Source of the DNA: Nitrospirota bacterium
GTDB lineage: Bacteria > Nitrospirota > UBA9217
Length of the DNA stretch: 64,000 nt
Direction of reading: 5' to 3'
Assembly (NCBI GenBank): GCA_049793155.1
Contig: JBARBN010000228.1
Location: 14,644-78,643 of the forward strand
Shown: positions 22,901 to 54,405 of the stretch, in pieces
How positions within the stretch are numbered: position 1 is the first letter of the stretch
Layout: every line of letters starts with the position of its first letter
Translations under genes and position numbers: made by a program
Notes under the pieces: generated by a model
Seen by the model: only the letters and a program-made list of their open reading frames with translations
Database searches by the model: none
What the model was told of the DNA's origin: nothing

Positions 22901-24392
22901 AATGGTCCGGTAATTGGTTCGTGGAATCGTGCCATAAGTACTTTCTTATATCCCCGCCGACGAGCCGCTCATACGCAGTCTTGTCCCGGGTCAGCAATGC
23001 CTGCGAAATATCTCCGATCGATGACCCCGAGGTCACGGAGGTTGTTATTTTTTCACCCTGCAAAACACCGTTCTTCTGATCGTAATAATCCCGAAGCTCG
23101 ACGCTGGTCAATTTGGCATCGGCAACCACCGCAACGGGGAGGTCCTTCATGACACCGCTTACGTCGATGCTGCTGCCCGATTCCATGTAGACCCGGTCGG
23201 TCGCCCTCAAGGTTACGTTCCCCGCCGGCGCAACAATGTTTCCCCTCAGCTCGATCTCATTCGCGCTGTTGGTCCCTCCCCTCATGTCATTGTTGTTGTT
23301 CTTGCTCAAACCTCCTATGAACACGACCGGCTGAATGTCGAAGGTATCGCTGATGGTGCGCGGCAGGCCGGTCACCGGGTCCAATGAAACATCGACCGGC
23401 AGCAGAATCATGCTGTTAACGCCTGTGGTGATCTTTTTCGCTGCCCTCAATTCCACCTGACCGTTCTTATTCTGGAATGCCGTCACGGCACGGATGACCC
23501 CCCACTGATCAATGTTGTTGCCGTGCATGCCGGCCACGCCGCCATCGGCGTATAATTTCCCGCCCTCCCGGTTCACGGCACGGCCGAAATCAGGATCGGT
23601 ACTCATGGGCGCGTTCAGGAAGTCATCATTGATCACGACATAATAGCCGGATCTCGCCGTGTCGCTCTCTTGCGGGGTCAGCAGCTGCACGTCCGTCCCG
23701 GCAACCAGACCGATCTGGCCTGCGGGCGCATTGATGGTGCCGCCATTTTCCACACGGGGGGCCATAAGGAATACAGTGCCGCCATTTGCAGTGATCTCTC
23801 CAAAATTCGAGACCGTAGCCTGCAGATCAAAACCCGCTCCTGATTGCTGGTAGTCCTCCGCCTTGAATTTCAATGCATTGTTTATGAAATCGCCATCATG
23901 GATATTCAAGGCCGAGGCCACCAGGCTATTGACGTTCACTATCGAGCCCTGCCCGAAGAGGATGCCGTTCTGATTAATGAGGTAGATCTTTCCGTCCGCC
24001 GTGAGCTTTCCAAAGATCAGGCTGGGGTCCCTGCTCCAGATCCGGTTCAGGGCGGACCAGTTTGCATTTCCCTGCTGATCGAACTTTGTCCAGGCATCAG
24101 CGCCGATATCGAAAGATGACCAATCGATGATGACGTTCGGCTGGGTCTGATGGACGACGAGCTGGTTCTGCGAAGTATTATTATCAACAGTGACGCCAGG
24201 TATGGTTGCTGTCGGTTGTTGCAGCACAGGCAATTGTGTCCGGGGAGGAGGCGCTACCGTTGATCCGTAAAAGCCGGGAATATTGACCTGACCGGCCAGG
24301 GCGTAATGGGGGAACAGGACCAGCACGCAACCGAGCAGTCGCATCATGACATGAAAAAAGCTGATTTTCATTGCTCCCCTCCTGTACCTCAT
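13998..24392 (-). CDS. Giant TpsA exoprotein of a two-partner secretion system (filamentous-hemagglutinin-like; 3464 aa)
   Basis: Signal peptide, then a TPS secretion domain: NVIIDWSSFDIG...ALNRIWS...GKIYLINQNGILFG. This is the FhaB/ShlA-type NPNL/NPNGI-like core. About 3100 aa of degenerate G/N/S/T-rich beta-helix-like repeats follow. The C-terminus is acidic (...DFVEDDNDKSKEE). The real start is probably MKISFF at 24371. Confidence 0.85.
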   Translation of the reverse strand: MRYRRGAMKISFFHVMMRLLGCVLVLFPHYALAGQVNIPGFYGSTVAPPPRTQLPVLQQPTATIPGVTVDNNTSQNQLVVHQTQPNVIIDWSSFDIGADAWTKFDQQGNANWSALNRIWSRDPSLIFGKLTADGKIYLINQNGILFGQGSIVNVNSLVASALNIHDGDFINNALKFKAEDYQQSGAGFDLQATVSNFGEITANGGTVFLMAPRVENGGTINAPAGQIGLVAGTDVQLLTPQESDTARSGYYVVINDDFLNAPMSTDPDFGRAVNREGGKLYADGGVAGMHGNNIDQWGVIRAVTAFQNKNGQVELRAAKKITTGVNSMILLPVDVSLDPVTGLPRTISDTFDIQPVVFIGGLSKNNNNDMRGGTNSANEIELRGNIVAPAGNVTLRATDRVYMESGSSIDVSGVMKDLPVAVVADAKLTSVELRDYYDQKNGVLQGEKITTSVTSGSSIGDISQALLTRDKTAYERLVGGDIRKYLWHDSTNQLPDHWVYQPQTGNIDMNVTNGDIIIKQGAALNLAGGLINYQSGLVDSTKLLSGTQIYDIGNAPANIQYNKLLGNYEKTYDGFGIRESYSGIYYGGASSLKTYVKGYAQGGDAGTLSLTASSVVLDGQLNGSVTRGTYQNAWTTRTAYGTDADYEEALMLSKAQGIETPRAGTLKIGNSGSTTLNNPTSISVLSQIDPQQLSIDNKLTIGSDPLTGPTLISATTLNNAKLGTVNLTADLTIDTAADAGLVLQPGGSFAATARRIDHEGSITVHGGEINLYAAQNNTSQLNANGTSNGASYEPLDERIIAGKKSVLDVSGERIDNSQAGTTGNAFAGSGRTNGGSVSLKDETDQGAGVFVQTGALMDVSGGYSIDQKGKVTGGNAGSLSIQGTNIELDGDLRGYALADPNGKLQGGAITLASTNITVAPASSIPQTYDWSSFDAASSDPQKSSVSAEMKDKFTLAENRFDDTGFTRITLNSQNDLIIDKNTTITPSLARMNNPIIGQTGKALIEGQDASGSMVPGRPDLMRLDDAMSYMAGPSSFTANAAKLFDGTLTSGNSNFAGNLKDVDRSSVNLMVSDGAVIQTSPGGSISLSGPNVTVQGMLDAPAGNISLSATKGDLLLGNGAKITAAGYNRPDPSSTPNGFDVNYQSMTGGNVSLTAFGSLEIDRSAIVDVSGSDVVQNTVLSNGKITTYKTASNPGSVSLSYGSDLNPLGSVYANHAQLEGLGGGSLAIAKTDATSGMDVTKLALHTTGFDDLTFRSAYSLIFSSNINNALIGRKLTLDAPEITGSGNNVALSAPWIVLTNTSKVSPPALTNSTSPTAGSFTLSGGWTDSSGVKHGGFIDVIGDVQIDGFRDVTLRTDRDIRLSQVLYDNNFTSGKDGNPGTVKNGILATTGNLVLDADRIYPGNYYSYTTHGSQFYPDLYSDYTVHSNGKVTLQHTIQNADITADVPIYSAGGSLTVEGLAGIDVEKGVTLAAPMGTITLNAPGKRIYLADGSVLTTAGSAEVMYGLIDPNNLWLLEDKSNPGINAGTTSRITQDSLPQKGITLNADEVVARGGSVIDVSGGGSIFGYKFQPGVEGSVDPLTKTGRYVVFKADSFPMPGTAVYLQGGGGLSAGMYTLLPLDAKNPQNARYAFLPGASIIEAQSGPSLPEQGALSKDGYPLVVGYSAVADTPIQGTRPQVFTVRTAAEVLHAEGSYVKPEPILSGDAGIIKISGNTMILDGKLKAAAGQGFQGGKISLSAANIIVQTASTSPLGNYFNFDTSFDDLLHPELQKLKGGLTMSADGLTGFREVDLGDAGSTNSITITSTAEAPTVLNASIISLAAKNQITIGKSSSLQAVTDQNTNSGEGVITLTTPGTLDIGSNAILHATHAVSLDANNVATMKGSLQSDNGALTLKSSAIFLDDGTRTDTGLHVTQNMWTNNFTGFQDITLVSNSGNNAGIQFRENFNLSAGNSLTLDASRIANVSQSPIAVTLEAPTINFKNSGTASTLPPDASMGASIFTAATSANAGGIGTINIGDGDVLFANFNRINLNSRNDLTLNGKGSLSAGNADLSISAARVVAVSTAGTNKHKDGTATTSLTPADFAVYAGANYHNDQNDPNPTNKITIAGNGNAAGPSSTQGGTLEFWGASIDQGGVIQADGGSIKLSAMGSGPADGVMLRSGSKILAQGTVDAPGGQVLLKSVNGGIVLDSSSLIDVSAGSQGDAGLISLQSPIGGVLINGSLMAAAHGGAGGSFILDTSQLADIDMTRLIGTLSAGGFTESVDMRARKGNIDIASTDKLTAHLVKLTEDDPSKDANGVLLTDSNGNPLYGNINVAGRIEVSQGGSVELYAMNDLNIQSGGSIRAVSSTSGSLDANVLLSSSAASININGKIDVSGSDGTAPTGVVYLRAQCNLANNDLNATIASGAIAGASAVYAEAVRSYDISSSTPDLALPTGISDATTFYTNYMNNTNRFGTGINNFHLLPGIELVSNGNIDLNAAWDATTSRFGGEPGVLTIRAAGDLNINNNLADSPSGYNITSAPSGQNSWGFDLVAGADLSSADHMAVNNSGAGNLSFANNVIVYTETAPIRIASGKDTIIGVADQPPGYMLPSYMMNYSLASFTGSIRGNVGRDLIVAGAIQTATGDIDINIGRDLNLLVGNDTNNAGAGAIRTTGRLSAAAAAANWGDNPFDPMVIALPGSIQSDIYQTYYWRYDKGGNINLSVGRQAGKLNSSGQWVVADKTDAWDYFSPIEVSFPLAGNGGSATLAYYGVFSADYVNGTAGLATMGGGKLAVRTGGDFLAQAGTFGTGDLTIYSGGDIKGRFLNHGSAGEPGRAEIHAMGNFGAFDKQAQIELFNSRMNVTAQGEMQIGAVLNPTLASDKIDESRNYFVQCTYMPETSIKLKAGTDVTIAGNSPYYANDPTGYAKNYERVLPATVNVDAGGDIMLRNDFTLASFSKGDLSLDAGADVIGQVLDTAHGTYRSATILMSDISTQNWYGLFYIGNPDSPEKSGQWISKRTSNLHGLYDPTDNTWSFSEPLHAGDDQAITVHADEDIKGLNMKFSKKAEVTAGRDIVDITYEGQNITSNDVAMIRAGRDISIQYVKASSQNSAQGGLIQGGPGVFLVQAAGSIDLGSLSDGIQEIGNGNNPALGAEKSSLVVLSGYGFDKPASDIQAFFNSIRTAGDTYAGLMADGKLDEASQLLQTTRTKTIAPLLDAPTGAGDINMTSSQISTSNAASDIFVIANGNLNLGKTALPSASVVNTTTGITTANGGAINIFAVKDINVQESRVMTFFSRQDMVDPTKLYGDITVWSDQGNINAGRGSRTAVNASPPKRKQVPGLTGVYETVFTPPAVGSGMRALTYGDNPPVPGNVHLFAPTGVIDAGEAGIAGGQITLAALKVNNASNITFSAGSIGVPQSSEGTASLGTLAGTGITQNTQMNTDASGIGVSRAQASQMVEDIIAKWLDVKVVDFVEDDNDKSKEE

Positions 24393-25993
24393 CAGAACAC
24401 CGCCTTCAGTTTAAAATACAGCCTCAGATCATTGCTCTTTGTCCGGTCCGTGGCGTCCAGGGCCTTGGCCCCGTCCAGCTCGTATTCCAGGTTCTTCGCC
24501 ATCGAGCCCCGCAAGCCCACCCCGGCTCCTTCGAGCTTGACGCTGCCCGCCTGGCCAGGAAGGGGTTCTTGAGTAGTCAGCGCGGCAATGTCGTAGAAGA
24601 GAAAGGGGATCATCTGCAGCCACTTCCCGGTCCTGGTTTGTTCGAAAGGATTGGGGAAAGACACTTCCACCGTGCCATGCACGGCCTCATCGCCTGAAGC
24701 CTCGCTCTCCTTGTATCCCCGCACGCTTTCCATGCCACCCGCGACAAACTGCTCATTGTTGATAAGCGGCTGATCGGATGACTGCCCGTCCACCTTCACG
24801 AGCAGGTTCATCCCTCGGGGCAGCTTCTGGTTGCGCTGGATGGACGCTGTTTCGTAAACGTAGTCCGCCCTCCCCTTGAAGCGTTTGAGCTCGAACTGTC
24901 TCTCATGGGAACCCATGCCGCGGAAGGACATGTTCACTCCCGCGTTGAACTGTGTCATCCCTCCCCACTCATCCGGCAGGGACGCGTTGTAGGAAAAAGA
25001 AAGCGGCGTATAAGAGATCGGCGTATGGGTCGTCTCACCGCCTGCCGTGGTGAAACCGATGGCTTGATCGAATTGCTTGTAATCAATGCCCAGGGTCAGG
25101 TTATGTGAATATAGCTGGTACGGTGTCAGTGCTGTTACATATCGAGTGCCGAATATCTTTCCCTTTCCGATCACCTTGAAGTCTTCGCCAAATGCCGTAG
25201 TACTGTCCGACCAGATACCATACAGCGCCAGCTGATCGTCCTTCTGCCATGGCGCGGGCAGGACGTAGGATGCGCCCAGGACCTCAACCTCCTTCGTCTT
25301 TCGGGGAGCGGTCTGGTACTGAAAGGATAGGGAGTGCTCCGCTTGCCAGAGATTATCGTAACGGGCCATCCCGTTCAATCGCAATGCACTCGTGTCGTAG
25401 CTGGCCCTGTTGTTCAATTCCAGATACCCGTGAAAAGGAAGCCGGTCTTCCACCTTCAACTCAACATCGATGGTCCCTACTACCTTGCCCGGCGTCATTA
25501 CGGGTTCGACCTTGATGTCCTGGCTTCTGTTCAAGCGGCCGATCTCCTTCTGGACCTGCGGCAGATACAGGATCGAACCCGGGGTGAATGACGGCAGGTC
25601 CTTCATCACTTTTTCCATCGTGAAATACCGGTTGCCCGTGACCTTTACCCGGCCTATCCGGCTCTCGATGACCTGCAGCCGGACAACGCCCTCCTGCAGG
25701 GTTTGCTCGGGGATGTTCACCATAACAGCCGGATAACCGGCTTCGTGATAAAGTTTTTCGAGGACATCGCGGGCCTTTTCCACATCAACCGCTGTTTTTC
25801 CGGCGCCGGTCAACAACAAGACCGCTGCCTGCAGTTTATCTTCCGGCATGAGGGTATTTCCTGTGATCTCAAAGGTCTTGATCTCGAATCCTGATGTCCC
25901 GCCCTCCTCGGCGAGGCACACCCTGATCAGTGTTCCCTGCAGGGTCATGATCACGACCAGGAGACAGATGAGGCGCCTGCTGATATTCTCCAC
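24392..25993 (-). CDS. TpsB outer-membrane transporter (ShlB/FhaC family, Omp85 superfamily)
   Basis: Signal peptide, two POTRA-like regions and a 16-strand barrel region ending ...LRLYFKLKAVF (C-terminal Phe). Its stop overlaps the tpsA start. Confidence 0.8.
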   Translation of the reverse strand: MENISRRLICLLVVIMTLQGTLIRVCLAEEGGTSGFEIKTFEITGNTLMPEDKLQAAVLLLTGAGKTAVDVEKARDVLEKLYHEAGYPAVMVNIPEQTLQEGVVRLQVIESRIGRVKVTGNRYFTMEKVMKDLPSFTPGSILYLPQVQKEIGRLNRSQDIKVEPVMTPGKVVGTIDVELKVEDRLPFHGYLELNNRASYDTSALRLNGMARYDNLWQAEHSLSFQYQTAPRKTKEVEVLGASYVLPAPWQKDDQLALYGIWSDSTTAFGEDFKVIGKGKIFGTRYVTALTPYQLYSHNLTLGIDYKQFDQAIGFTTAGGETTHTPISYTPLSFSYNASLPDEWGGMTQFNAGVNMSFRGMGSHERQFELKRFKGRADYVYETASIQRNQKLPRGMNLLVKVDGQSSDQPLINNEQFVAGGMESVRGYKESEASGDEAVHGTVEVSFPNPFEQTRTGKWLQMIPFLFYDIAALTTQEPLPGQAGSVKLEGAGVGLRGSMAKNLEYELDGAKALDATDRTKSNDLRLYFKLKAVF

Positions 25994-26130
25994 CTGTCGC
26001 TACGCTCCAGTTCCGCTTTTGATCGTCCCCGCTTCCGCAACCTTGTCGATTGACGTATCGCAGGCCGGGAGCAGGAACACGACGGGTACGGCGGTATGCA
26101 GCCACGCACTGATCCGTTTTCTATATTGCA

Positions 26131-26325
26131 TCATGATGAAATTCCTTCTGCCCGCCTTTTTTCGTTTCTTGTCTCTCCCGACATAATGATCGCGGCATCG
26201 TTGATTTCTTCGTACTTTTCCACCCTCCCCAGGCTGCCCTGGCTGAAGTTGATCTTGACATATCCGCTGAATTCCCCTTCCACAAGCATCCTGATCACTT
26301 CGCTGAGACTTTTCATCCTGTCCAT
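26131..26325 (-). CDS. Small conserved protein S1 (64 aa), paralog of the ORF at 32339..32473
   Basis: MDRMKSLSEVIRMLVEGEFSGYVKINFSQGSLGRVEKYEEI... The corresponding 44-aa stretch of S1 (about 55% identical) aligns with MEKIKKMMEVIKALMDKKFTGYIRINFTRGSVERIEKFEEILKK. The shared core is EVI..L....F.GY..INF..GS..R.EK.EEI. It lies between the NusG-like gene and tpsB. Confidence 0.6.
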   Translation of the reverse strand: MDRMKSLSEVIRMLVEGEFSGYVKINFSQGSLGRVEKYEEINDAAIIMSGETRNEKRRAEGISS

Positions 26326-26363
26326 GGCCGCCCTCGTGATTCGCTGGTATTAAAATACCGGCA

Positions 26364-26867
26364 TTATGCCGCTTCAACATCGTCAGCGTAAATTTTTACG
26401 CCGACGCTTCTTCCCAGAAGCTCTATGCTGACGAGCAGAATGTGATGATCTTCTTTGCTCGCCAGTATCCCCTCTGCGCCCCTGAATACCCCGTTTTTTA
26501 CCCGCACCCGGGCGCCCTGTTTCAGATGCGGATAGACATCAATGTTTTCCCGGGCATCAAGGAGTATCTTCAGCGCGCGTATCTCTTCGGAAGCCACTGG
26601 TGTCGGATGTCCGGGCTCAAGGGATATGAACGTCACGGCGCCCCGGGTTTTCAAAACTCTTAGAAATTCCTCCGGACCCGGCAACAGGGAAACAAAGAGA
26701 TAGCCGGGGAACAGGGGAACGTCCACACGTTTTTTTCTGTCTTTCCATTGATTCAATTTTGTTACTGAAGGCAGAAAGGTTTCGATGCCCTTGCCTTGCA
26801 GTTCGCCCGAGACCACGAATTCATGTCGTGACTTCACGTGTACCGCATACCAGTTGGCGCTCATCAT
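26364..26867 (-). CDS. NusG-family specialised paralog (UpxY/LoaP/RfaH-like transcription antiterminator)
   Basis: NGN domain WYAVHVKSRHEFVV...FPGYLFV. C-terminal KOW-like GARVRVKNGVFRGAEGILA. Much shorter than housekeeping NusG and placed at the head of a long operon. Start taken at MMSANWYAV; the upstream 53-codon in-frame extension looks non-coding. Confidence 0.7.
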   Translation of the reverse strand: MMSANWYAVHVKSRHEFVVSGELQGKGIETFLPSVTKLNQWKDRKKRVDVPLFPGYLFVSLLPGPEEFLRVLKTRGAVTFISLEPGHPTPVASEEIRALKILLDARENIDVYPHLKQGARVRVKNGVFRGAEGILASKEDHHILLVSIELLGRSVGVKIYADDVEAA

Positions 26868-27035
26868 GGTCTTGCACCTAGGGAATGATTTGAGATTTGT
26901 ACAGACAAAGGGTGATACCGGAACGGACCATGAGGACTCGTTATGGGCTTTCCGGTCGTTGATGCTTTTTGAGCACCAACTCAGCAAAGTACCCGCATAC
27001 TCTTGCGGTGTGCGAAGCGATACCATACTATAGTC

Positions 27036-27089
27036 TTGTTAAAACTTGATGACTGTATTGTTACAATTTGATAAAGAATTTAATAACCG
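27036..27089 (-). promoter_or_regulatory. Direct-repeat array A (5 heptamers at 11-bp spacing) upstream of the NusG-like/tps operon
   Basis: TTGTTAAaac TTGATGActgt aTTGTTACaat TTGATAAagaa TTTAATA. It lies about 180 nt upstream of the NusG-like start. Confidence 0.5.
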
Positions 27090-27203: not shown

Positions 27204-28091
27204 CTAATCTGCCTTCAGTAAGGGCTTTGCATCAATGACCTTTCCCACGGTCACATCGCAAAGCAGCGTCTCACCGCCGAAGGAATTCCCGAAGTCGACG
27301 GTTATGCCCTTGTCGTCTACGTCGGTGATGTGTCCTACCATTTCGCCAGCCCGGACGAGCGCTCCTTTGCGGGCCTCAATGTCCACTTTGTAATCCTGGC
27401 CATCATCTCTGATGCGTCCGGGGCCGAAAGGCGTCTCGATGACGGCGCCTGGCGTCGCGGAAAACCGGATCGTCACTTCCTGGTCTGAAATGGACTCGAC
27501 CCTGCCGGGGAAATCGGGATCATAGGAATATGCTTGTCCCACTTCCGGAGATTGCTTGGCCCTGTACTCATAATCTCCCCTCGGCATTTTCATTTCCTTG
27601 GGCCGGGTGCGGACCCGGGTCAGGTGCGCGATATATTTTGGTGCTTCCTGATCCGGTACATCTTCCGCCTTGATCTCCGCCGTGCGACTATCGCCTTCCT
27701 TCATGCTGACAATGGCAAACGCGAGCTGATGCGAAATTTCCTCTTCCATTGACCGTTGCACGTAAGGCGTCGACTGCACTTGCACGGCATCCGCGGCGCT
27801 GACCGCCTCAATTGAAAGGGGAACAGCCTCATCCTTCTGCAAATAGGCGTTCGACTTTCGTTGGATCTCGGCAACGATGTCCGTTGCAGCCACAACCTCG
27901 CCCGACCGGAGTCGACACAAATAATGGACGGATGCCGTATCGCCGGGCTTTATCTCCTTCGCCTGCGCACGGTCAGTTGTGGGTTCAGGCTGCAAGGTCT
28001 GATGCGTTCCCGGGGTAGCACACCCCGTGATTGCCAGCAGGCAAACGGACACCTGAATAATTGTCTGAATTTCTTTCCCGTTAAACTTCAT
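27204..28091 (-). CDS. FKBP-type peptidyl-prolyl isomerase lipoprotein (two FKBP/SlyD-like segments)
   Basis: Lipobox LLAITGCATP. IKPGDTASVHYLCRLRSGEVVAATD resembles the FKBP GDxVxVHYxGxLxDG motif. The C-terminal GHITDVDDKGITVDFGNSFGGETL is SlyD-like. Confidence 0.5.
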   Translation of the reverse strand: MKFNGKEIQTIIQVSVCLLAITGCATPGTHQTLQPEPTTDRAQAKEIKPGDTASVHYLCRLRSGEVVAATDIVAEIQRKSNAYLQKDEAVPLSIEAVSAADAVQVQSTPYVQRSMEEEISHQLAFAIVSMKEGDSRTAEIKAEDVPDQEAPKYIAHLTRVRTRPKEMKMPRGDYEYRAKQSPEVGQAYSYDPDFPGRVESISDQEVTIRFSATPGAVIETPFGPGRIRDDGQDYKVDIEARKGALVRAGEMVGHITDVDDKGITVDFGNSFGGETLLCDVTVGKVIDAKPLLKAD

Positions 28092-29699: not shown

Positions 29700-30449
29700 T
29701 TAGGCAACTGTCTTCCTACGGAGACCGACGAGACCCATCAGACCCGAGCCGAAGAGGTAGATAGCAGCCGGGATCGGCGTAGCTTGCGCGACCAGTTGCG
29801 TGGAGCCGTCAGCGAAGGTACGAATCGTAGCGATGCTCGTGCCTTGTGCTCCGGAACTCGGATCAGAGCCGTAGTAATAGAGAACCTGGTCAACATAGCT
29901 CGAAGTAGCAAGCGCCCCCAGATTCTTCTCGGCATCGCCCGATGCAAGATAATTGCCCATCGTTCCGATCATGGTTCCGCCGCCATTCATCATGTTCCAG
30001 TAGGAATACGTACCGGTCTGTGCAACCGTTGCATTGTTGCCGACTGCGGCGCCACGGTAAGTATCCAGAGTGCTACCTGCAGCTGGACTGAATGACCCCC
30101 AGAACGCATAGGGGTTGATGTTACCGGCGTTTGCCGGACCGCTGGCATAGGCAGAACCATTGCCGCCATTCGCGGTATTGGACAGGATGAAGTAGGCGAC
30201 ATTGGTATTGGCCAATGTCGCGCCTGACCCTAACTTGCTAAGGCTGAAGGTGTCCGTATTGAAGGCCACATTGGTGGTAAGAGGTGCGCTCGCTGAAAAA
30301 GCACCGAGGTCTGTTGCGTACTCCGTGCCGGCGCCGGTCCCGCTATATACCACGCGGATCAGATCGCCTTCGTCGAAAGCGGCCATTGCCTGACCGGCGA
30401 AACTGACCATGAGCATCATGGCTACAAAAAGCAAAATAATTTTTTTCAT
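29700..30449 (-). CDS. Secreted protein with a VPLPA-type PEP-CTERM exosortase sorting signal
   Basis: Signal peptide MKKIILLFVAMMLMVSFAGQAMA. The C-terminus ...ATPIPAAIYLFGSGLMGLVGLRRKTVA has a P-x-P-A motif, a TM helix and a basic cluster. Confidence 0.65.
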   Translation of the reverse strand: MKKIILLFVAMMLMVSFAGQAMAAFDEGDLIRVVYSGTGAGTEYATDLGAFSASAPLTTNVAFNTDTFSLSKLGSGATLANTNVAYFILSNTANGGNGSAYASGPANAGNINPYAFWGSFSPAAGSTLDTYRGAAVGNNATVAQTGTYSYWNMMNGGGTMIGTMGNYLASGDAEKNLGALATSSYVDQVLYYYGSDPSSGAQGTSIATIRTFADGSTQLVAQATPIPAAIYLFGSGLMGLVGLRRKTVA

Positions 30450-30845
30450 TGTTTTGTTTCCTCCTGAGTTTTTTAAAATCAATCGAAATCGTTCCTACCC
30501 AGCGTTTCGTGCGTGTATATCTGGAGACGCTGCGTATGCTTTTTACCCTCAGGCGACCCGGCCATCCACCTCTGGTGGACCCGCTGGTTTTCCGTCACCC
30601 GGTTGCCCGGGCTTTGGCTTTATTCTGAAGGCCGGATGCTGACTTGCGCAGACATCCTACCGAGTTGTATACATCATCTATGCTGTCTCTATCTCCCCCT
30701 CCTTTCTTTTATGGATGTATTGAGTGGGCCTGTCAATTTGAACTGTAATAAATCATTACGCGGCAGGCTCCCGACCCGGGCTTTCTGTTACCTTATTCAG
30801 GTCAGCTAAGTACCCTGGTACTAAATAAAAGACGATAAATAAAAA

Positions 30846-30892
30846 AAGCCCGAATCCTGATAAGAACTCACTCTTATCCATGATTCGGGCTT
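30846..30892 (-). terminator. Intrinsic terminator (hairpin plus U7) downstream of gene 31056..32228; part of repeat copy 1
   Basis: AAGCCCGAATC-ctgataagaactcactcttatccat-GATTCGGGCTT. In the minus direction it is followed by UUUUUUUAUUUAUCGUCUUUUAUUU. The loop carries its own inverted repeat (gataagaa/cttatc). Confidence 0.6.
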
Positions 30893-30940
30893 TCTGGTGC
30901 GCGACTGAATTCTGTCGGTCAGCAAAGGACCCTGATGATC
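30846..30940 (-). repeat. Leader/terminator repeat element, copy 1 (about 95 nt)
   Basis: Hairpin plus TTTCTGGT(A/G)C plus the CGGTCAGCAAAGGACCCTGA(T/G)GAT box. About 85% identical to copy 2 at 32237..32335. Confidence 0.6.
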
Positions 30941-30994
30941 ACTTGTTCATTTTATGCTTCTTGATCGTTAACGTAGCGAATACTACACGTCGCA

Positions 30995-31035
30995 GGTTAC
31001 ATGGTGATGACAGTTCAATGAAAGTTGTGTGAAGA
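30995..31035 (-). promoter_or_regulatory. Direct-repeat array X1 (TGATGA-type)
   Basis: ACATGGTGATGAcagtTCAATGAaagtTGTGTGAag. About 70% identical to array X2 at 32794. Confidence 0.4.
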
Positions 31036-31055
31036 TTTACGGCTCCGTCCTTCGG

Positions 31056-32228
31056 TTACTGAACAAACGATCGTGCTCTCCTGTCCAGGTCGGCGAGGTA
31101 ATTCGCCGTGAATATATACTCTGAGAGATACATTTTGTTCTTCCTCTGAACCGCCGAAGACCGGCTGTTTATGTATACCTGCAGTGCTTCGATGAAATTA
31201 TTTTCATTGACGACACGGATGAGATCGATCGGCGGGGCAACGACGATCGGATAGTCAAGGATTTCCCCGCCTGCAAGGGTGACCAGCCTCGCGTCCCAGG
31301 TCCCTTCACTCGGGAGGACCGTAATGACGATGTCTTTTTCGCGTGCTTCTTTCGACAACAGCGTGGCGTCGGACAGGGCGATCCCGGTTGAATGCGTTCC
31401 ATCCGACTGTACGTCTATCCGGATCGTGACCGGGGTTTTCCCGTCGGAGATCGCGATCGCAGGCTCCTGCCTGCATCGTTCGCCTTCGTTAGGCCCGAAC
31501 AGAGCGACAAACGAACTCAGGTCCTGCTCCCCCTTGTATTTTTTGAACCGCTGCAGTACGCTTTTTTCCTCACGCGTGAGGAGTGTTATCTTCGCCGCTT
31601 GAACCTGCCTGCCGACATTCCCCGGCGACCGCACCCCTGCTGTCATGGCAACGGGCGCATCAGTTCCCCTTATTCCATCCGGAGCAGCCGCGGAGTTATT
31701 TTTCGGGACTATTACAGTTGGGACCGTATTGTCTGTTCCGTTCCGGGAATTAATATTCTCGAGTCCGACCGTTGGTTCATCCGTTGGTCCGCCTGGCAGC
31801 GTGTTAGCATCAGACTCGGAGGGCCATGCGGTCGTGCTCCTGACACTCGCGGTTACATGATAGATGCCTTTGGTCGCATTCTCCGCCCACGCCTCCTCGA
31901 AATTTACAAAGATCTGGAGAAGAGGATCCGCGACCGGCCGGAAAATGCTGAGGAACAGTGTTCCCGGCACGTTGTCCTTTATCTGCCGCAATTCTCCCCC
32001 GCCGACCGTGATGTAAGGATGCGCCAGCATGGTGGAATCGTAGTCGATCTCTATATCCAGGGCCTGCACGCCGATGACATTTTCTCCTGTCATCACGAAG
32101 CTGCCCTGCCCATTCGGCTGGATGCTCATCGTGACGGCATCGGCAAATGAAAGAGCCGGGCAGATCACTACAAGCAGGAGACCCAGCAAAGGCAAATGTA
32201 GTGTTTTATAGATGATTTGTTTAATCAT
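31056..32228 (-). CDS. Secreted hypothetical protein
   Basis: Start at MIKQIIYKTLHLPLLGLLLVVICPALSFA (signal peptide). No recognisable domain. A structured leader lies immediately upstream. Confidence 0.5.
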   Translation of the reverse strand: MIKQIIYKTLHLPLLGLLLVVICPALSFADAVTMSIQPNGQGSFVMTGENVIGVQALDIEIDYDSTMLAHPYITVGGGELRQIKDNVPGTLFLSIFRPVADPLLQIFVNFEEAWAENATKGIYHVTASVRSTTAWPSESDANTLPGGPTDEPTVGLENINSRNGTDNTVPTVIVPKNNSAAAPDGIRGTDAPVAMTAGVRSPGNVGRQVQAAKITLLTREEKSVLQRFKKYKGEQDLSSFVALFGPNEGERCRQEPAIAISDGKTPVTIRIDVQSDGTHSTGIALSDATLLSKEAREKDIVITVLPSEGTWDARLVTLAGGEILDYPIVVAPPIDLIRVVNENNFIEALQVYINSRSSAVQRKNKMYLSEYIFTANYLADLDRRARSFVQ

Positions 32229-32236
32229 AATAACGC

Positions 32237-32285
32237 AAAAGCCCGAATCGGGATAAGAATATGATCTTATCTCTGATTCGGGCTT
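32237..32285 (-). terminator. Terminator-like hairpin in the 5' leader immediately before the start codon of 31056..32228 (candidate attenuator); part of repeat copy 2
   Basis: AAAGCCCGAATC-gggataagaatatgatcttatctct-GATTCGGGCTTT. In the minus direction it is followed by UUUGCGUUAUU and then the ATG. Confidence 0.5.
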
Positions 32286-32335
32286 TCTGGTACCCTGGCG
32301 ATATAATCCGCCGGTCAGCAAAGGACCCTGAGGAT
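32237..32335 (-). repeat. Leader/terminator repeat element, copy 2 (about 95 nt)
   Basis: Same modules as copy 1. A partial third copy (box plus a different hairpin) lies at 44441..44514. A box-only match TCAGCAAAGTACCC lies at 26977..26990. Confidence 0.6.
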
Positions 32336-32338
32336 ATG

Positions 32339-32473
32339 CTACTTTTTTAGAATTTCTTCAAATTTCTCGATCCGCTCGACGCTTCCGCGGGTGAAATTGA
32401 TCCTGATGTATCCTGTGAATTTTTTGTCCATAAGAGCTTTAATTACTTCCATCATTTTTTTTATTTTTTCCAT
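32339..32473 (-). CDS. Small conserved protein S2 (44 aa), paralog of 26131..26325; absent from the ORF track because it is under 60 aa
   Basis: Hand translation of the reverse complement: ATG GAA AAA ATA AAA AAA ATG ATG GAA GTA ATT AAA GCT CTT ATG GAC AAA AAA TTC ACA GGA TAC ATC AGG ATC AAT TTC ACC CGC GGA AGC GTC GAG CGG ATC GAG AAA TTT GAA GAA ATT CTA AAA AAG TAG. Confidence 0.55.
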   Translation of the reverse strand: MEKIKKMMEVIKALMDKKFTGYIRINFTRGSVERIEKFEEILKK

Positions 32474-35412: not shown

Positions 35413-36456
35413 CTAAATATTTTCCGGAGCATTGATAACTGCTTTTCGCCGATAGCGGATCATGTAAATCAACAGCAGTAGAGGGAAGAGGTATTGCCCG
35501 ACTGCGATGAGGGTCAGGTCCATTGTTCTGGCGGATGTGTAATTAAAGTACGCCAGCAAAACATTGTCAATCCGGTGAAAAAGATGGATGACAAAAAGGA
35601 GCCCCAACCCCGCGGCGAGCCCCTTGATTTTCATTGCCCACGGTACTGAGCTAACAGCAAGGACCAGCGACGTAAAGATGACAATGCTGAAGGTTTCATA
35701 GTAGACGGTGGTTTCCTGCGCGAGGCCTACATGGTGATCGAAGAGAGAAAAACCCAGGACCATAAACCAATCCAGGAACCGGATATACCCGTGATGGACC
35801 TTCATCCATACAAGAAATAGACCGCTGGATATCAGCACAAAGCGTACAAAAAACCACGCTGCTTTCATGGGCATGCCCTTGTTCGACTCTTCCCGGTCGA
35901 TCCATTTCAGCCACAGGATGCAGGCCAGCAGGACAAATAACATAGTGAATACCTGGCCCAAATACACATGAAAAACCTCAAAGAGCCCCCGGTCATACCG
36001 ACTTACCATGAAGGTGAGTGCCAGCCGGAACAGGTTGCCCATATAGAGTAAGGGGATTCCCATTGCAAGACCGGTTGTCTTCTGTCGCGCCGTAGCGGGA
36101 TGAAAGATAACGAAGCTCAGGAAAAGGCCCGTTGTGAAGAGCGGAGTGCACTCGGGGATGATCTGGAACGCCAATGCGCCTTCCGATACCGTGTCGTTGA
36201 CAGTCGATGCGGGAATGCCGAAAGCATTCAGGACCAGGACCAGGGTCGCCGCAACGTGTTCGTTTATCGGCTTTGTGAAAGACGGCGGCAATGCGTTAAT
36301 GATCGCATAGATCGCAATGCAGGAAAGGGCGAACGCAGCGGCAAAGCGAAAACTACGCGACCGGATCATATTCGATATTAAAGATCCGAGAGAATCGCCT
36401 TTTTTTTCGGCGGCCTTCTGTTTCTCATGTCGATGCTTTGATTTCTGTTTTGCCAT
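35413..36456 (-). CDS. Exosortase (EpsH/Xrt family transpeptidase)
   Basis: About 8 TM helices. A conserved Cys sits in IIPECTPLFTTGLFLSF (exosortase E-C-[ST]-G/P-like motif) and Arg residues in FRLALTFMVSRYDR. It shares the window with five proteins carrying matching C-terminal sorting tails. Its start is 3 nt from the upstream stop. Confidence 0.6.
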   Translation of the reverse strand: MAKQKSKHRHEKQKAAEKKGDSLGSLISNMIRSRSFRFAAAFALSCIAIYAIINALPPSFTKPINEHVAATLVLVLNAFGIPASTVNDTVSEGALAFQIIPECTPLFTTGLFLSFVIFHPATARQKTTGLAMGIPLLYMGNLFRLALTFMVSRYDRGLFEVFHVYLGQVFTMLFVLLACILWLKWIDREESNKGMPMKAAWFFVRFVLISSGLFLVWMKVHHGYIRFLDWFMVLGFSLFDHHVGLAQETTVYYETFSIVIFTSLVLAVSSVPWAMKIKGLAAGLGLLFVIHLFHRIDNVLLAYFNYTSARTMDLTLIAVGQYLFPLLLLIYMIRYRRKAVINAPENI

Positions 36457-36458: not shown

Positions 36459-37859
36459 TTAACGTGTCCGCGGGTCATCCCCTTTCAGCGGAACGGTCGA
36501 CAAGTCAAGGGCATTGCTCAGGTCATTGGCAGCTGCGTCGCGCGTACCCAAAGGTGCCAGGTTCCATCGGCGTTCGATGAACTTCAGAATGGATGTCGTG
36601 TCGTACTGCGTGTGATCGACAAATCCTTTCTTTGCAAAGGGTGAAATGATGATCGCCGGGACTCTCGTACCGGGGCCCCAGCGGTCGCCCTTCGGCGGGG
36701 CCACATGGTCCCACCGGCCGCCGTTCTCGTCATAAGTGATGATGATCACGCTGTCGTTCCAATAAGGACTTTCCTGCACCGCCTTGACGAGTTCAGCCAC
36801 ATGCAGCTGTCCAAAAAGGAGCGCTGAATACCCGGGATGTTCGTTGTAGGAGCCGATCGGCTTGATGAAGGACACAGACGCCAATGCGCCTTTATTCAGG
36901 TCCGTGAGAAAGTCATTCTCGTCCTTAAGATGCGCTGCTTTGGCGACCGTATTGTCGGAAAAATTTGCGAAATAGGCAAAAGGCTGGTGATGGAACTGAA
37001 AATCTCCGGCCGGCTTTCCGGCGACGGCGTCGTTCCATCCTCCGGAATACCAGGTCCAGGAGAGGTTCTTCTCCGTAAGCCGGTCTCCGATAGTCGGCTG
37101 GGTCTGCGGCGGAACAAGATCTTTTGCGCCTTTCGGATGAGGCTGGTTTACCGAGTAAGAGGTATTGACGACGAAGCCATCAGGCGTCACAGCGCCGTCT
37201 TCTTCGAGGATCCCTTTCGAATCAAGCTTTGCTCTCATCAAGGGCGGTGCATCAGGCCAAACCGGCGTGCAGGCGCAGATGAGCCAGAAATGATTTAGGA
37301 ACGAACCGCCGAATGCCGCCTGAAAGAAATTGTCGGCGAGCGTGTATTGCCTCGCCAGCTTTCCCTCGGGCAGGTCGCCGGCATCAACATAGCTCATGAC
37401 GAGCCCTGGATTGTCACTCCAGGTCGCGAACTTGTCCATTTTGCCTCCGTCTATCTGGAGTTGGTTCTGGTAGAAGCGATGAACGAGGTCCCCCGTTTTT
37501 TCGTTCCCGGGAACATACCGGGCCAGATCATACGGTTTTGCCGGCATCTGCTCCGGAAATCGAAGATCGGGCACTGGAGGCTTCAGACAGGTATCCAACG
37601 GCCTCTTAAGAGTTTTAAGCGGCCTGCCCTCTTTGTCAATCTGGTTCAACGCATCTCCCGCATTCGCGATCCCGTTCGCGCCGGGAAAATTCCCATAAAG
37701 GCCGTCGAAGCTCCAGTTCTCCTGGTAGATGACGATGACATGATTGATCTTTGACTGGAGCGCTGTCGTAGTTGTATCTGCGGCCTGCACGAGCGTTGTG
37801 CAGAAAATCGTCGCTGCGGATAACGCAAAAATCCTTACGAACCGAGAGAGAAAAGGCAT
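36459..37859 (-). CDS. Phosphoesterase-family protein (PlcN/AcpA-type non-haemolytic phospholipase C / acid phosphatase), secreted
   Basis: Signal peptide. INHVIVIYQENWSFDGLYGNFPG is the PF04185 phosphoesterase N-motif. Immediately upstream of the exosortase and in the same transcriptional direction. Confidence 0.7.
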   Translation of the reverse strand: MPFLSRFVRIFALSAATIFCTTLVQAADTTTTALQSKINHVIVIYQENWSFDGLYGNFPGANGIANAGDALNQIDKEGRPLKTLKRPLDTCLKPPVPDLRFPEQMPAKPYDLARYVPGNEKTGDLVHRFYQNQLQIDGGKMDKFATWSDNPGLVMSYVDAGDLPEGKLARQYTLADNFFQAAFGGSFLNHFWLICACTPVWPDAPPLMRAKLDSKGILEEDGAVTPDGFVVNTSYSVNQPHPKGAKDLVPPQTQPTIGDRLTEKNLSWTWYSGGWNDAVAGKPAGDFQFHHQPFAYFANFSDNTVAKAAHLKDENDFLTDLNKGALASVSFIKPIGSYNEHPGYSALLFGQLHVAELVKAVQESPYWNDSVIIITYDENGGRWDHVAPPKGDRWGPGTRVPAIIISPFAKKGFVDHTQYDTTSILKFIERRWNLAPLGTRDAAANDLSNALDLSTVPLKGDDPRTR

Positions 37860-43683: not shown

Positions 43684-44376
43684 TTAGCTCTGTTTTCTTC
43701 TCATTTCTATCAACCCCGCGAGGCCTGAACCGAAAAGCCATACTGCGGCCGGAATCGGGGTGGCAACAGGGTTTGGATCAGGTGTGCCGGCGATAAAGAT
43801 GGTATTGCCGCCGGCATCAGTGGTACGAATGGCCGCAGTGGTAGTGCTCGGATTGGCGGTCATCCTGGGATAGAGGCTGAAGTTTGCCGTTGTTCCATAG
43901 CCGACGAGATCAACGAGGTTGGCGGACGTTGCAACGGTGCTTGCGCCGGTTGCAGTCGTATCGAACAATGCCAGCTTACCCGCGGTAGCGGACAAGTTGA
44001 GACCAGCGAAAGTACCCAGGGTCAGATCATAAGCCGGGTCGGGTGCCGTGCCGACGAGGCCCGTTCCCCGTCCTTCTTGAATGAGAAAATAGCTGTTTGG
44101 ATTGATGATACCGGACAGGTTGTGCGAGTTCGATGGGCCAAAAGTCGTTGTATTGGTAGCACTTGCATACTGGAGGCTGTAGCCGCTCAGATCGATCGCA
44201 GAAGTCCCGTCATTGTACAACTGGACCCAATCGTTGCTATACAGAGGATTAGTACTCGTTGCGCCGCCTCCCCCGTAGATCTGGCTGATGACAAGATCCG
44301 CATGGGCGGACTGGGGCGCTGCCATCAGCATTACCGTGAACATAACTGCTGTCAGTGTTAGCATTACCCTTTTCAT
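43684..44376 (-). CDS. Secreted protein with a VPLPA-type PEP-CTERM sorting signal
   Basis: Signal peptide MKRVMLTLTAVMFTVMLMAAPQSAHA. C-terminus ...VATPIPAAVWLFGSGLAGLIEMRRKQS. Confidence 0.65.
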   Translation of the reverse strand: MKRVMLTLTAVMFTVMLMAAPQSAHADLVISQIYGGGGATSTNPLYSNDWVQLYNDGTSAIDLSGYSLQYASATNTTTFGPSNSHNLSGIINPNSYFLIQEGRGTGLVGTAPDPAYDLTLGTFAGLNLSATAGKLALFDTTATGASTVATSANLVDLVGYGTTANFSLYPRMTANPSTTTAAIRTTDAGGNTIFIAGTPDPNPVATPIPAAVWLFGSGLAGLIEMRRKQS

Positions 44377-44440
44377 TGTACTTCTCCTTTTGTTATTAAA
44401 TTATTCGCCTGGTAGGGCGATAGAACCTGGCAAAATAAAA

Positions 44441-44481
44441 AAACCCGGAGAAGAACCTCAACAGGTTCGTTTTCCGGGTTT
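44441..44481 (-). terminator. Terminator-like hairpin in the leader of the VPLPA-CTERM gene 43684..44376
   Basis: AAACCCGGAGAA-gaacctcaacaggttcg-TTTTCCGGGTTT. In the minus direction it is followed by UUUUUUAUUUUGCC. It sits between array E and the ATG, just after the conserved box GGGCCCTTTGCTGACC. Confidence 0.5.
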
Positions 44482-44552
44482 TCTGTTTCCTTTATAAGGT
44501 CAGCAAAGGGCCCATGTCTGATTACGAATTCTTGCGTATTAAATCATATTTT

Positions 44553-47079: not shown

Positions 47080-48228
47080 TCACTCCGCCGTGTCCACGAA
47101 CGGGCACTCCGGGTCGGGAGCGAAGATGTCGCCGGAAACAAACCCGCTCACGGCGCGGCACCCTCCCTTGCAGATCTTGAGATAGTCGCATGATCGGCAG
47201 GGCTCCGGGGCCCGCTCGATCCAGCTGCGCAGACGAGAGAGGTGCTCGGACCCGTTCCACAGCCGGGGCAGGTCTAGAATGCTCTCTTCTCCTGACAAGA
47301 AGGAGCAACCCGCGAACCTGCCGTCGGAGCGGACCCCCACAAGAACATTGCCGGCCTCGCACCCGTAGACCGAAAGCTGCTCCATGGTCTTTTTGTCCGG
47401 CCTATGCCAGCAGAACATCGGAACGAAAGAGCAGTCGATCTTTACCGGTACCCGGTGTTCCAGGGAAAGGCGTCTGATCATCGGATAGAATTCCCGGTTC
47501 TGATCCCGTGTTAATCTCCTGTCAAAATAGTCCTGCTTCCCCCGTCCCTTGGGTTTTAAGCGAAGGAGTTCCACGTCGGCAAGTCCACGCTCCCCGGCAA
47601 AGCTGAGCACGCCGGCCAGTTGATCGAAATTCCGGCGCGTCACGACGCAGTTCAGTCCGACCTTGACACTGGCCTTCAAAAGCAGATCTACCGCTCGCAC
47701 CGCTGCCGCGAGAGCAGCTGGGTCCCGGTCTGTTCCTTCGGGGCTGTCGAGCCCGTCGATACTTACGTTGACCTGACCGAACACGCGGCACCGTGCGGCA
47801 ATTTCATTGGTCATTAAAAATCCATTCGTGGTCAGGTTGGGGACGATGCCGCGGCTGCGCACGTAGGCGGCCAATTCAAAAAAGTCGGGACGCTCCAGCG
47901 CTTCTCCGCCTCCCAGCGCCATGTGGAAAACACCCATCCCGGCCAGCAGGTCCACGGCCTTTCGGAAATCCCCCGTAGACAGCTCGTTCGCATCTTTTTC
48001 CCCCGAATCCATGTAGCAGTGCCCGCACCGCAGGAAACAGGAGTTGGTAACCGAAAAATGGACCTCAAGGGGAGCGGAGAGAAGACCATCTTCGGGTTTA
48101 TCCCACAGGGGGCTGTGCTTATGACCCAGGCTGCGCATGAAGTCTTGGTCCACGTGCACCAGCACCGGAGGATCTTCTAGGGCCAGTATCCCGCCGAACG
48201 ATTCGAACCGATGCTTCATAACGCTCAT
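47080..48228 (-). CDS. Radical SAM / SPASM-domain enzyme (peptide-maturase-like)
   Basis: CFLRCGHC is a Cx3Cx2C radical-SAM cluster motif. The C-terminal SPASM cysteines are CSFVPMFC...CEAGN...CSF and CRSCDYLKICKGGC. An N-terminal extension of about 60 aa precedes the core. Confidence 0.8.
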   Translation of the reverse strand: MSVMKHRFESFGGILALEDPPVLVHVDQDFMRSLGHKHSPLWDKPEDGLLSAPLEVHFSVTNSCFLRCGHCYMDSGEKDANELSTGDFRKAVDLLAGMGVFHMALGGGEALERPDFFELAAYVRSRGIVPNLTTNGFLMTNEIAARCRVFGQVNVSIDGLDSPEGTDRDPAALAAAVRAVDLLLKASVKVGLNCVVTRRNFDQLAGVLSFAGERGLADVELLRLKPKGRGKQDYFDRRLTRDQNREFYPMIRRLSLEHRVPVKIDCSFVPMFCWHRPDKKTMEQLSVYGCEAGNVLVGVRSDGRFAGCSFLSGEESILDLPRLWNGSEHLSRLRSWIERAPEPCRSCDYLKICKGGCRAVSGFVSGDIFAPDPECPFVDTAE

Positions 48229-53015: not shown

Positions 53016-53041
53016 GTCAACTCCGGTTCCTGGAATAAAAA

Positions 53042-53073
53042 AAAGCCCGCCACGAATGAATTCGCAGCGGGCT
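53042..53073 (-). terminator. Terminator-like hairpin plus U8 in the leader immediately before the pentapeptide-repeat gene start
   Basis: AAGCCCGC-cacgaatgaattcgca-GCGGGCTT. In the minus direction it is followed by UUUUUUUU, then about 18 nt, then the ATG. Confidence 0.45.
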
Positions 53074-53285
53074 TTAAGGTACCCCTGATAGAGGGGCCTA
53101 AAAAGTACCCAATGATTAAATGACAGCCACTTGCTGAATGGGCGAGTGTTACTTCTGATCACCCATCGTGATAAGGTAAAAAAATCAAGTCTCACACAAA
53201 ACCACAAAGTAAAGAAACTTCGTTAATCAAGAGATTATCTTTGTGATCACTATTCGAATCATTTTTTAACACATAATTATTACAA

Positions 53286-54312: not shown

Positions 54313-54405
54313 TCAGTACTCCCTCTTTGTAATTGAAGCATTATAAGAATACGGATTGAATAAAATCAAAGCACCGCCAAGCATTCGTCGTTCAACCTTT
54401 TCCGT

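Follow-up and report, generated by a model that had tools for sequence, protein, structure and literature searches.

In the hut operon of Bacillus subtilis, an RNA site and a terminator lie behind the first gene, which encodes HutP, and this protein reportedly acts on the very transcript that encodes it. ANTAR targets consist of two tandem hairpins with hexanucleotide loops, the second of which overlaps a terminator, and the NusG paralog LoaP has been reported to require a leader RNA hairpin upstream of terminators, specialised NusG paralogs being normally encoded in or beside their target operon. Here we describe an RNA element that occurs in six copies within a 64-kb stretch of Nitrospirota DNA (contig JBARBN010000228.1; "the window" in the following, with positions counted from its first letter). 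The element consists of two conserved boxes, A and B, which can close a helix around a small hairpin, and it very probably represents a conserved switch that overlaps an intrinsic terminator. From our point of view, the mechanism appears to be of a known kind, and the RNA family as well as its candidate protein partner appear to be new.

Between 14 kb and 63 kb of the window, all genes are located on the minus strand. As a consequence, an earlier, sequence-only reading of this DNA saw the reverse complement of the element, and all element coordinates given here refer to the minus strand, i.e. the gene strand. Each copy starts with box A (GGGNNCUUUGCUGAC), followed by a variable short hairpin (P2), box B ((A)CCAGAAAGCCC) and a long perfect stem that opens with the AAAGCCC of box B and closes with GGGCUUU and a U run. 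Two near-identical copies had been reported by the sequence-only reading, and both were recovered at their places: the 19-nucleotide (nt) box TCAGGGTCCTTTGCTGACC is found exactly at 30917-30935 and 32313-32331 and with three mismatches at 30800-30818 (three matches in the window vs 0.02 expected by chance), a repeat finder returned both the hairpin copies and the box copies as families (D8 and D9), and copies 1 and 2, which lie 1.4 kb apart, are 84-90% identical over ~95 nt. A covariance model (R1) with a seed of 62 short-type copies, 60 of which stem from other genomes, was then run on the 64 kb with all filters off. It returned exactly six copies with E-values from 2e-14 to 5.5e-4, including those at the two reported places, while the next best match reached 9 bits; four of the six are absent from the seed alignment. 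All six lie on the minus strand, in leaders or between genes, and none is located inside a credible gene, as the single overlap concerns only the upstream extension of a mechanically listed open reading frame (ORF) of a NusG paralog.

The structure of the element differs from the one that had been assumed. The box had been regarded as single-stranded and the adjoining TTTCTGGTRC as a spacer, but the latter stretch is a second conserved box (box B), and the comparative data indicate that box A is the 5' strand of a helix, P1, which is closed with box B CAGAAAGCCC and encloses P2. P1 comprises the pairs GGG:CCC, C:G, UUU:AAA and CUG:CAG, interrupted by a bulge of 2 nt and by a bulged G, and is nearly invariant in sequence, whereas P2 is a small hairpin of variable sequence. 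When each copy was cut just before the 3' arm of the terminator in order to mimic the nascent RNA, RNAfold gave one common fold, with P1 enclosing P2, for every window copy and for ~100 copies elsewhere. In an alignment of 62 motif-selected sequences (A1), which had been gathered by a pattern fixing most of P1, 95.0% of the pair cells were standard pairs compared to 25-58% with partners slid by 1-3 columns, and all four P2 pairs had changed on both sides. As the collecting pattern fixed most of P1, A1 cannot test this helix, and 80 metagenome loci were therefore fetched via a small protein alone (see below) and searched with R1. The resulting alignment A3 contains 89 R1 matches from 58 of the 80 loci; 95.3% of its cells are paired vs 23-58% in the slid controls and eight of 14 pairs have changed on both sides, these counts being biased towards the model structure by the alignment to R1. 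The observed covariation score was reached by none of 500 shuffles of A1, and the same holds for the protein-selected A3. The compensatory changes of P1 in A3 are CUG:CAG to CCG:CGG and UUU:AAA to UUC:GAA, each in five sequences, and GGG:CCC to GGA:UCC in one. Since the U-to-C changes that go along with A-to-G changes in CUG:CAG and UUU:AAA fit only the register GGG:CCC / C:G / UUU:AAA / CUG:CAG, an alternative register that RNAfold prefers for P1 (GGGU:GCCC with UUUG:CAGA) was rejected. The invariant nucleotides of the element are the Watson-Crick pairs of P1, whereas the unpaired NN bulge and the 3' internal loop vary.

Copy 1 (30885..30934; R1 score 42.8 bits, E 1.5e-10, not in the seed) combines box A GGGUCCUUUGCUGAC, a P2 of CGAC..GUCG and box B ACCAGAAAGCCC, and folds into P1 plus P2 with -15.3 kcal/mol if cut before the 3' arm of its terminator. 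The terminator itself (30840..30895) is the minimum-free-energy fold, in which box B forms the 5' foot of a stem AGAAAGCCCGAAUC...GAUUCGGGCUUUUU that is followed by U7. A tandem variant copy (30776..30817; 55.5 bits; box A GGGUACUUAGCUGACC, P2 ACCU-GAAUA-AGGU) comes next and has no U-tract terminator behind it; Nitrospirota and Smithella loci likewise have this tandem variant (CUU[G/C/A]GCUG with a short P2) after their first terminator. Copy 2 (32278..32330; 48.1 bits, E 3.6e-12, not in the seed) starts 10 nt past the stop codon of an ORF for a 44-amino-acid (aa) protein and has a truncated fold of -17.7 kcal/mol; its terminator (32232..32287) ends in an interrupted U tract (UUUUGCGUUAUU) that continues directly into the start codon of a 390-aa gene (ATG at 32228). 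The hairpins of copies 1 and 2 (AAAGCCCGAATC...GATTCGGGCTTT, with a nested GATAAGA/TCTTATC stem) fold as strong terminators with z-scores of -4.7 and -4.95.

A third and a fourth locus, which had been proposed at 44441-44514 and 26977-27000, proved to be true copies as well. Copy 3 (44474..44515; 49 bits, in the seed; box A GGGCCCUUUGCUGACC, box B ACAGAAAACCC) resides in the leader of a gene for an LTD-domain protein with a VPLPA-CTERM-like tail (43684-44376), and its terminator (44434..44484) folds with a U7 run after the stem. Copy 4 (26943..26996; 35.4 bits, E 3e-08, not in the seed) belongs to the leader of a UpxY-like gene and has a long P2 (GUUGGUGCU..AGCAUCAAC) and a box B of CCGGAAAGCCC. 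The same subtype was found in seven other loci (L112, L017, L162, L178, L175, L180 and L185). Part of its box B is used by an alternative hairpin, ACCGGAA...UUCCGGU, which folds at 26917..26956 and lacks a U tract, and other members of the subtype contain the equivalent pairing GGGAAGC...GCUUCCC; as the U tract is missing, this subtype should have a different expression platform. The divergent copy 5 (53067..53112; 21.5 bits, E 5.5e-4, not in the seed) has box A GGGUACUUUUUAGG, a P2 of CCCCU..AGGGG and box B CCUUAAAGCCC, and by eye AGG:CCU takes the place of the CUG:CAG segment, which would be compensatory; its terminator (53034..53075) folds with a U8 run after the stem. Two further leaders, at 53042 and 29651, had been pointed out in the sequence-only reading. 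The former turned out to be the terminator of copy 5, but the hairpin near 29651 (GGGUUC..GAACCC with a weak U run) gave no R1 match and was excluded as a member. When the four terminator-bearing copies were compared to shuffles, three had z-scores of -4.7, -4.95 and -5.4 (none of 200 shuffles folded as well), and the one at ~44.5 kb had a z-score of -3.3 (1/200).

The last seven bases of box B (AAAGCCC) are at the same time the first seven bases of the terminator stem, i.e. its 5' foot, and because this segment is common to both structures, P1 and the complete terminator are mutually exclusive. For copies 1 (30.9 kb), 2 (32.3 kb), 3 (44.5 kb) and 5 (53.1 kb), the fold energies of the terminator state are -35.6, -41.6, -29.1 and -34.9 kcal/mol, compared to -27.3, -32.4, -19.1 and -24.9 kcal/mol with P1 enforced, which makes the terminator state more stable by 8-10 kcal/mol. 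Enforcing P1 leaves a shortened upper hairpin with unpaired bases between it and the U run, and a hairpin that is set apart from its U run by unpaired bases does not cause intrinsic termination. As such, the RNA alone should terminate, since the terminator wins energetically and the hairpin of the P1 state is not expected to terminate, and with the terminator as the default state, read-through needs something that stabilises P1. A G+C-rich stem with a U run is present in the leader behind four of the six window copies, and a crude test (a GGGCUUU arm with at least five U within the next nine bases) finds a terminator behind at least 142 of 185 copies in total. Together with the 3' strand of P1, which provides a conserved and covariation-supported alternative helix made in part from terminator bases, these data support the earlier notion of a cis element in leaders and between cistrons that ends in an intrinsic terminator and follows a logic of conditional termination. 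In two other loci (L041:3294-3405 and L093, minus strand), copies lacking a terminator are located 41-61 nt ahead of the start codon of a GT4-type glycosyltransferase; here the sequence behind box B can pair with the Shine-Dalgarno region and may constitute a translational expression platform.

With the ribonucleic antiterminators (RAT) of the BglG-SacY type and with ANTAR RNAs, the element has in common a short imperfect hairpin with bulges, which shares its 3' side with the 5' side of a terminator and needs a factor in order to persist against the more stable terminator. Its consensus sequence is unrelated to either, and unlike ANTAR targets it does not consist of two hairpins with hexanucleotide loops but of a single P2, with a loop length that varies widely in A1, and a long conserved P1, so that it does not qualify as an ANTAR target. 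No CAT/PRD or ANTAR domain was detected among the proteins scanned, which cover part of the window ORFs.

We propose, with a probability of about 0.5, that the element is a conditional terminator that keeps downstream expression off by default until some factor, most likely the small protein encoded next to many copies, locks P1 in its closed form. In the RNA left alone, the terminator would form and transcription would stop, whereas a factor that keeps P1 closed would leave the shortened hairpin with several unpaired bases ahead of the U run, and RNA polymerase would read through. This factor would most likely be the co-conserved basic 44-aa protein, whose gene lies immediately ahead of many copies and behind others. 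In the window, the switch would be placed after promoters of the phosphate-starvation type, in many cases with a c-di-GMP-I riboswitch in series, and it would gate exosortase-sorted secreted proteins as well as a two-partner-secretion-like operon. The data show the fold, the bases that it has in common with the terminator, its conservation and the genes around it; which way the switch works and which factor works it are what we infer from them. Autogenous protein-dependent antitermination appears to fit best, since a helix competing with the terminator, several structures downstream and a small basic protein from the same transcript come together, and a protein is favoured over a metabolite because the base pairs are invariant while bulge and loop vary, and because of the linkage to the small protein. 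That the 44-aa protein is itself the effector has, in our estimate, a little less than an even chance. The further idea of a new ribonucleoprotein antitermination system, in which a protein of 44 residues would recognise the bulged helix and thereby block the terminator, in combination with c-di-GMP riboswitches and phosphate-starvation promoters, is put forward tentatively.

The gene for this candidate trans factor (32339..32473, minus strand; MEKIKKMMEVIKALMDKKFTGYIRINFTRGSVERIEKFEEILKK) has a 61-aa paralog in the window (26131..26316, minus strand), which was found by a profile hidden Markov model (E 5e-23) and by tblastn and which is located directly after the UpxY gene, downstream of copy 4. 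Both paralogs contain the core motif FTGYIKINFxxGxxGRIEKFEEILKK. Homologs were detected by tblastn in ~30 motif-selected loci among the matches listed, where they usually end 4-50 nt before box A. Among the type-1 ORFs collected with a strict regular expression, 45 have the motif within 260 nt downstream, 24 lack it there and two are cut off by the end of their contig; for several of those 24, a copy is found at a distance of 300-400 nt. Conversely, in the metagenome loci that had been selected by the protein, 88 of the 89 motif copies are on the strand of the small gene. Re-searching the 22 small-protein loci without a motif with filters off gave one marginal match only. At three loci (L155, L156 and L172), a diverged box CAGCCUUUGCAUGACC plus a hairpin is found ~50-110 nt past the small ORF instead of the canonical motif.

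That the small ORF is coding is indicated by the distribution of differences over codon positions 1, 2 and 3 (24/18/58%). The 44-aa protein is basic as read from its sequence (12 K/R vs 7 D/E), its invariant residues include G21, G30, E36, E39 and E40, and the family comprises 273 clusters at 50% identity. The protein has no significant match in Pfam or NCBIfam, with a weak sub-threshold match in the latter only; none of 31 database homologs carries a Pfam domain, and no source provided a name. A supposed likeness to DUF2292/YezD was not borne out, as there was no such Pfam match at E up to 0.1. An AlphaFold2 (AF2) model predicts a helix and a beta hairpin (mean predicted local distance difference test score, pLDDT, 83), and searches against the PDB gave only E-values >1 with Foldseek and the AF2 model and a best E of 3.8 with a profile. 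A 126-aa ORF listed at 26000-26380 (minus strand) overlaps the 61-aa paralog in another frame; its tblastn matches coincide with those of the small protein, and it is probably a shadow rather than a gene. In the order promoter, small ORF, RNA element with terminator and cargo genes, the arrangement has its closest analogue in hutP and the hut operon. This likeness lies in gene order and logic, as the 44-aa protein has no detectable similarity to HutP, its RNA binding is putative, and the RNA is an imperfect hairpin with invariant pairs, whereas the HutP site consists of spaced triplet repeats.

Beyond the window, an exact-pattern scan of 185,579 species genomes found at least 120 loci. Among the matches listed, ~85 have the full architecture and ~35 are chance matches within coding sequence, many of them due to a conserved Roseomonas gene. 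The hosts are Geobacteraceae and other Desulfuromonadales, Smithella and other Syntrophales, Syntrophobacteraceae, Desulfobacterales and several Nitrospirota, and the cultured ones include Geomesophilobacter sediminis, Desulfosarcina cetonica and Desulfobacterium sp. N47. Several genomes have four or more copies, and one Nitrospiraceae genome contains three within ~70 kb, which resembles the island in the window. In Rfam 15, no family was found for the element at the gathering threshold over the whole window, the sole match being c-di-GMP-I at 30549-30628; with E up to 10, the region 30700-32400 gave chance microRNA matches to the terminator hairpin and a match to DUF2800 RNA with 15 bits against a cut-off of 60. 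We found no description of the element in the literature on RNA control of PEP-CTERM/exosortase systems, a survey that does not cover all journals, so that an earlier report is possible, and neither a Geobacter nor a Nitrospira motif is named in the text of the 224-motif paper.

Several observations weigh against the proposed antitermination by the 44-aa protein. The leader subtype of the UpxY/two-partner-secretion operons has no U-tract terminator, and termination therefore cannot be the sole output of the element. The covariation of P1 stems from few sequences in a handful of lineages because the helix is otherwise almost invariant. Protein gene and motif are not always linked in cis: about 20% of the type-1 small ORFs have no recognisable motif in the retrieved sequence, and many motif copies have no adjoining small ORF, including three of the six in the window. 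Three of the invariant residues of the protein are glutamates, which would be unusual for an RNA-binding surface, and no RNA-binding fold is recognisable in its predicted structure. The small protein could also be just one more gene of the regulon.

Alternatively, the element could be an orphan riboswitch, in which P1 and P2 form a small aptamer, a ligand (a metabolite, an ion or a second messenger) stabilises P1 and thereby prevents termination, and the small protein is just co-regulated. We regard this as the main rival, and as unlikely on balance. It has the typical architecture of ON riboswitches such as the pbuE adenine riboswitch on its side, namely a conserved domain that contributes the 3' strand of P1 to the terminator and default termination, more than one type of expression platform is found behind the same domain, and the element is conserved over two phyla. 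The series with c-di-GMP-I riboswitches in 10 of 18 loci is like known two-input tandem arrangements, and a small ORF is missing near many copies. However, conservation resides in the helices rather than in the loops, the invariant positions being the P1 pairs while the unpaired ones vary, and most ligand pockets show the opposite; no Rfam 15 family matched even at E up to 10. The domain is also very small and simple, the regulated genes for secreted proteins point to no ligand, and the strong linkage to one small-protein family would be left unexplained. Ribosome-mediated attenuation, which we consider quite improbable, would assign the 44-codon ORF another role: a ribosome finishing it would cover box A, block P1 and favour termination, and slow translation would result in read-through. 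Box A indeed follows only 4-16 nt behind the stop codon of this ORF in about half of the type-1 arrangements (10 nt in the window), but 24-187 nt behind it in the other half. Moreover, an upstream ORF is missing at three terminator-bearing window copies (copies 1, 3 and 5) and at most Geobacter copies, which begin ~20-40 nt from where transcription is inferred to start, and the ORF encodes a conserved protein family with invariant residues and paralogs instead of a leader peptide with regulatory codons, so that a trp-type leader peptide is not what is found here.

The sequence-only reading had linked the motif to the NusG paralog of the window, an UpxY-family protein (26364..26867, minus strand; NCBIfam NF033644, E 1.6e-36). 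A UpxY/LoaP-like protein recruited at the box or hairpin would make RNA polymerase ignore terminators, and the leader element with terminators ahead of a long secretion- or polysaccharide-type operon is indeed like LoaP, UpxY and RfaH systems. One copy lies in the UpxY leader, the operon behind it is very long and includes a gene for a 3464-aa protein, the gene order recurs in two other loci, and a leader hairpin ahead of terminators is what LoaP has been reported to need. Across 200 other loci, however, tblastn detected UpxY homologs in only two, namely in none of the 120 motif-selected loci listed and in two of the 80 protein-selected ones (L162 and L178, both with the window order of motif, UpxY, small paralog and POTRA gene), whereas a specialised NusG paralog would usually sit in or beside its target operon. 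Five orthologous operon leaders (L112, L017, L175, L180 and L185) carry the same motif subtype without UpxY, and the box bears no resemblance to ops (GGCGGTAGnnTG). Processive antitermination also needs no sharing of bases with the terminator, yet this sharing is constant here, and the overlap of the element with the terminator stem speaks for a structural switch at that very terminator rather than for processive antitermination. We hence rejected a partnership with a NusG paralog as the general mechanism and consider it very improbable; the UpxY paralog appears to be downstream cargo of copy 4 rather than the conserved partner of the motif. Even less probable is that the terminated transcripts act as trans-acting small RNAs with box A as a seed for pairing with other mRNAs. 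Copy 1 would yield an RNA of ~130 nt from its own promoter-like box to the strong terminator, but box A is paired inside the element, the copies always lie directly upstream of a same-strand gene, often with a riboswitch in between, and tandem copies occur within a single leader. A repeat similar to repetitive extragenic palindromes (REP) or miniature inverted-repeat transposable elements (MITE), or a set of ordinary terminators that are alike through recent duplication, can hardly be upheld. The near-identity of copies 1 and 2 at short distance would suit such an origin, but it is already contradicted by the comparative data, i.e. conservation with covariation across two phyla and the lack of copies in credible coding sequence. 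In particular, strand specificity (6/6 copies in the window and 88/89 elsewhere) and the single class of downstream genes contradict the REP/MITE reading.

Returning to the proposed conditional terminator, the genes behind it appear to be mostly PEP-CTERM-like exosortase substrates. A strict PxP..GSGL..RR tail is present in 37 of 68 complete first downstream ORFs, with about eight more near misses. In the window, the targets on the minus strand are a 260-aa protein with a PEP-CTERM-like tail (29700-30482), the LTD-domain protein at 43684-44376, whose tail is of this kind, the 390-aa protein starting at 32228, to which no family could be assigned, a pentapeptide-repeat protein, and the operon 13998-27026 with UpxY, the small-protein paralog, a POTRA/Omp85 (TpsB-like) protein and the 3464-aa protein, which by its gene content looks like two-partner secretion. 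A gene for an XrtH-like exosortase is located at 35413-36456 (minus strand; family match), and the XrtH-like exosortase and the FKBP-like protein of the window share 64-73% identity with those of L067 and L112, which suggests a Nitrospirota bacterium as the source of the window. A c-di-GMP-I riboswitch (30549..30628, minus strand; RF01051, 53.9 bits vs a gathering score of 35) sits between copy 1 with its tandem copy and the PEP-CTERM-like gene at 29700-30482, and the order motif, c-di-GMP-I riboswitch, gene found in 10 of the 18 other loci tested includes the GGC and UAU variants.

The promoters add another layer. A Pho-box-like repeat, GTCAT-N6-GTAAC, lies upstream of copy 1 (30996..31011, minus strand), equivalent boxes start at 32573, 44569 and 53294 at the other motif transcripts, and looser ones are found at ~27040-27058 and near 32827. 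Within the window, the pattern has 11 minus-strand matches (starting at 59531, 58158, 58147, 53294, 49690, 44569, 38005, 35370, 32573, 31011 and 28245) vs one on the plus strand. The box has an 11-bp phasing, often with four half-sites, is positioned as a -35 element and precedes ~12 transcription units, among them pstS of a complete pstSCAB-phoU operon (53623-58080), a Burkholderia-type acid phosphatase/phospholipase C (36459-37859), the region of an OlsF-like ornithine-lipid synthase (61648-63495), all on the minus strand, and four motif-bearing transcripts. Elsewhere, a Pho-like box is found at most 450 nt upstream of 72 of 181 motif copies, compared to ~7 expected from background density (~10-fold). 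These boxes would act as promoters, presumably under the control of PhoB, and because they precede pstS, the phosphatase and the motif transcripts and are enriched elsewhere too, the window looks like a phosphate-starvation island that is induced upon phosphate starvation.

To our knowledge, the regulation of exosortase substrates outside Proteobacteria is essentially unknown, although these proteins are abundant in sediment, soil and biofilm bacteria. The motif provides a concrete control point for them, with more than 140 examples in two phyla, and their genes would integrate at least three stacked inputs, i.e. the promoter, the switch described here and c-di-GMP. It also leads to a first hypothesis for an unannotated small-protein family and represents a candidate for a new Rfam family; the nature of the effector would decide whether this is protein-RNA antitermination of a new class or an orphan riboswitch not described before. 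If the proposal is true, the 44-residue protein would be among the smallest dedicated RNA-binding regulators, and the combined inputs would set the time at which exosortase-sorted surface proteins are deployed in Nitrospirota and Desulfobacterota. Should the effector be something other than the small protein, the element might represent a new class of orphan riboswitches that respond to some signal. In Proteobacteria, the PEP-CTERM box has been described as a DNA site, namely a TTTACA activator site with a sigma-54 -24/-12 promoter that is used together with PrsR/PrsK/PrsT (Haft et al. 2006, PMC1569441). Both are conserved non-coding elements in long regions upstream of single-gene PEP-CTERM operons, but in contrast to the PEP-CTERM box, the element described here is transcribed, forms a hairpin whose pairs covary, and lies behind sigma-70/Pho-box-like promoters. 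The box itself was also considered as a sigma-54 promoter (GG-N10-GC, -24/-12); this reading fails since the GG and GC of GGGTACTTTGCTG are, by inspection of the letters, 7-8 bases apart and the covariation of the hairpin argues for an element at the RNA level.

Some features around these genes deserve mention. The FKBP-like lipoprotein gene, which belongs to the two-partner-secretion-like operon in relatives, is located upstream of the operon in the window (27204-28091). The DNA repeated at 29711-29783 and 49844-49916 is the part of two different substrate genes that codes for the C-terminal sorting signal (TPIPAA..LFGSGLMGLVGLRRK), and a 15-nt tandem periodicity at 52354-52886, with 24 registers, is the coding sequence of the pentapeptide-repeat protein. 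Finally, a radical SAM/SPASM maturase-like gene at 47080-48228 (minus strand) is closest to the mycofactocin and GeoRSP types and is flanked by genes for proteins without a family, and this region could be a peptide-modification cassette.

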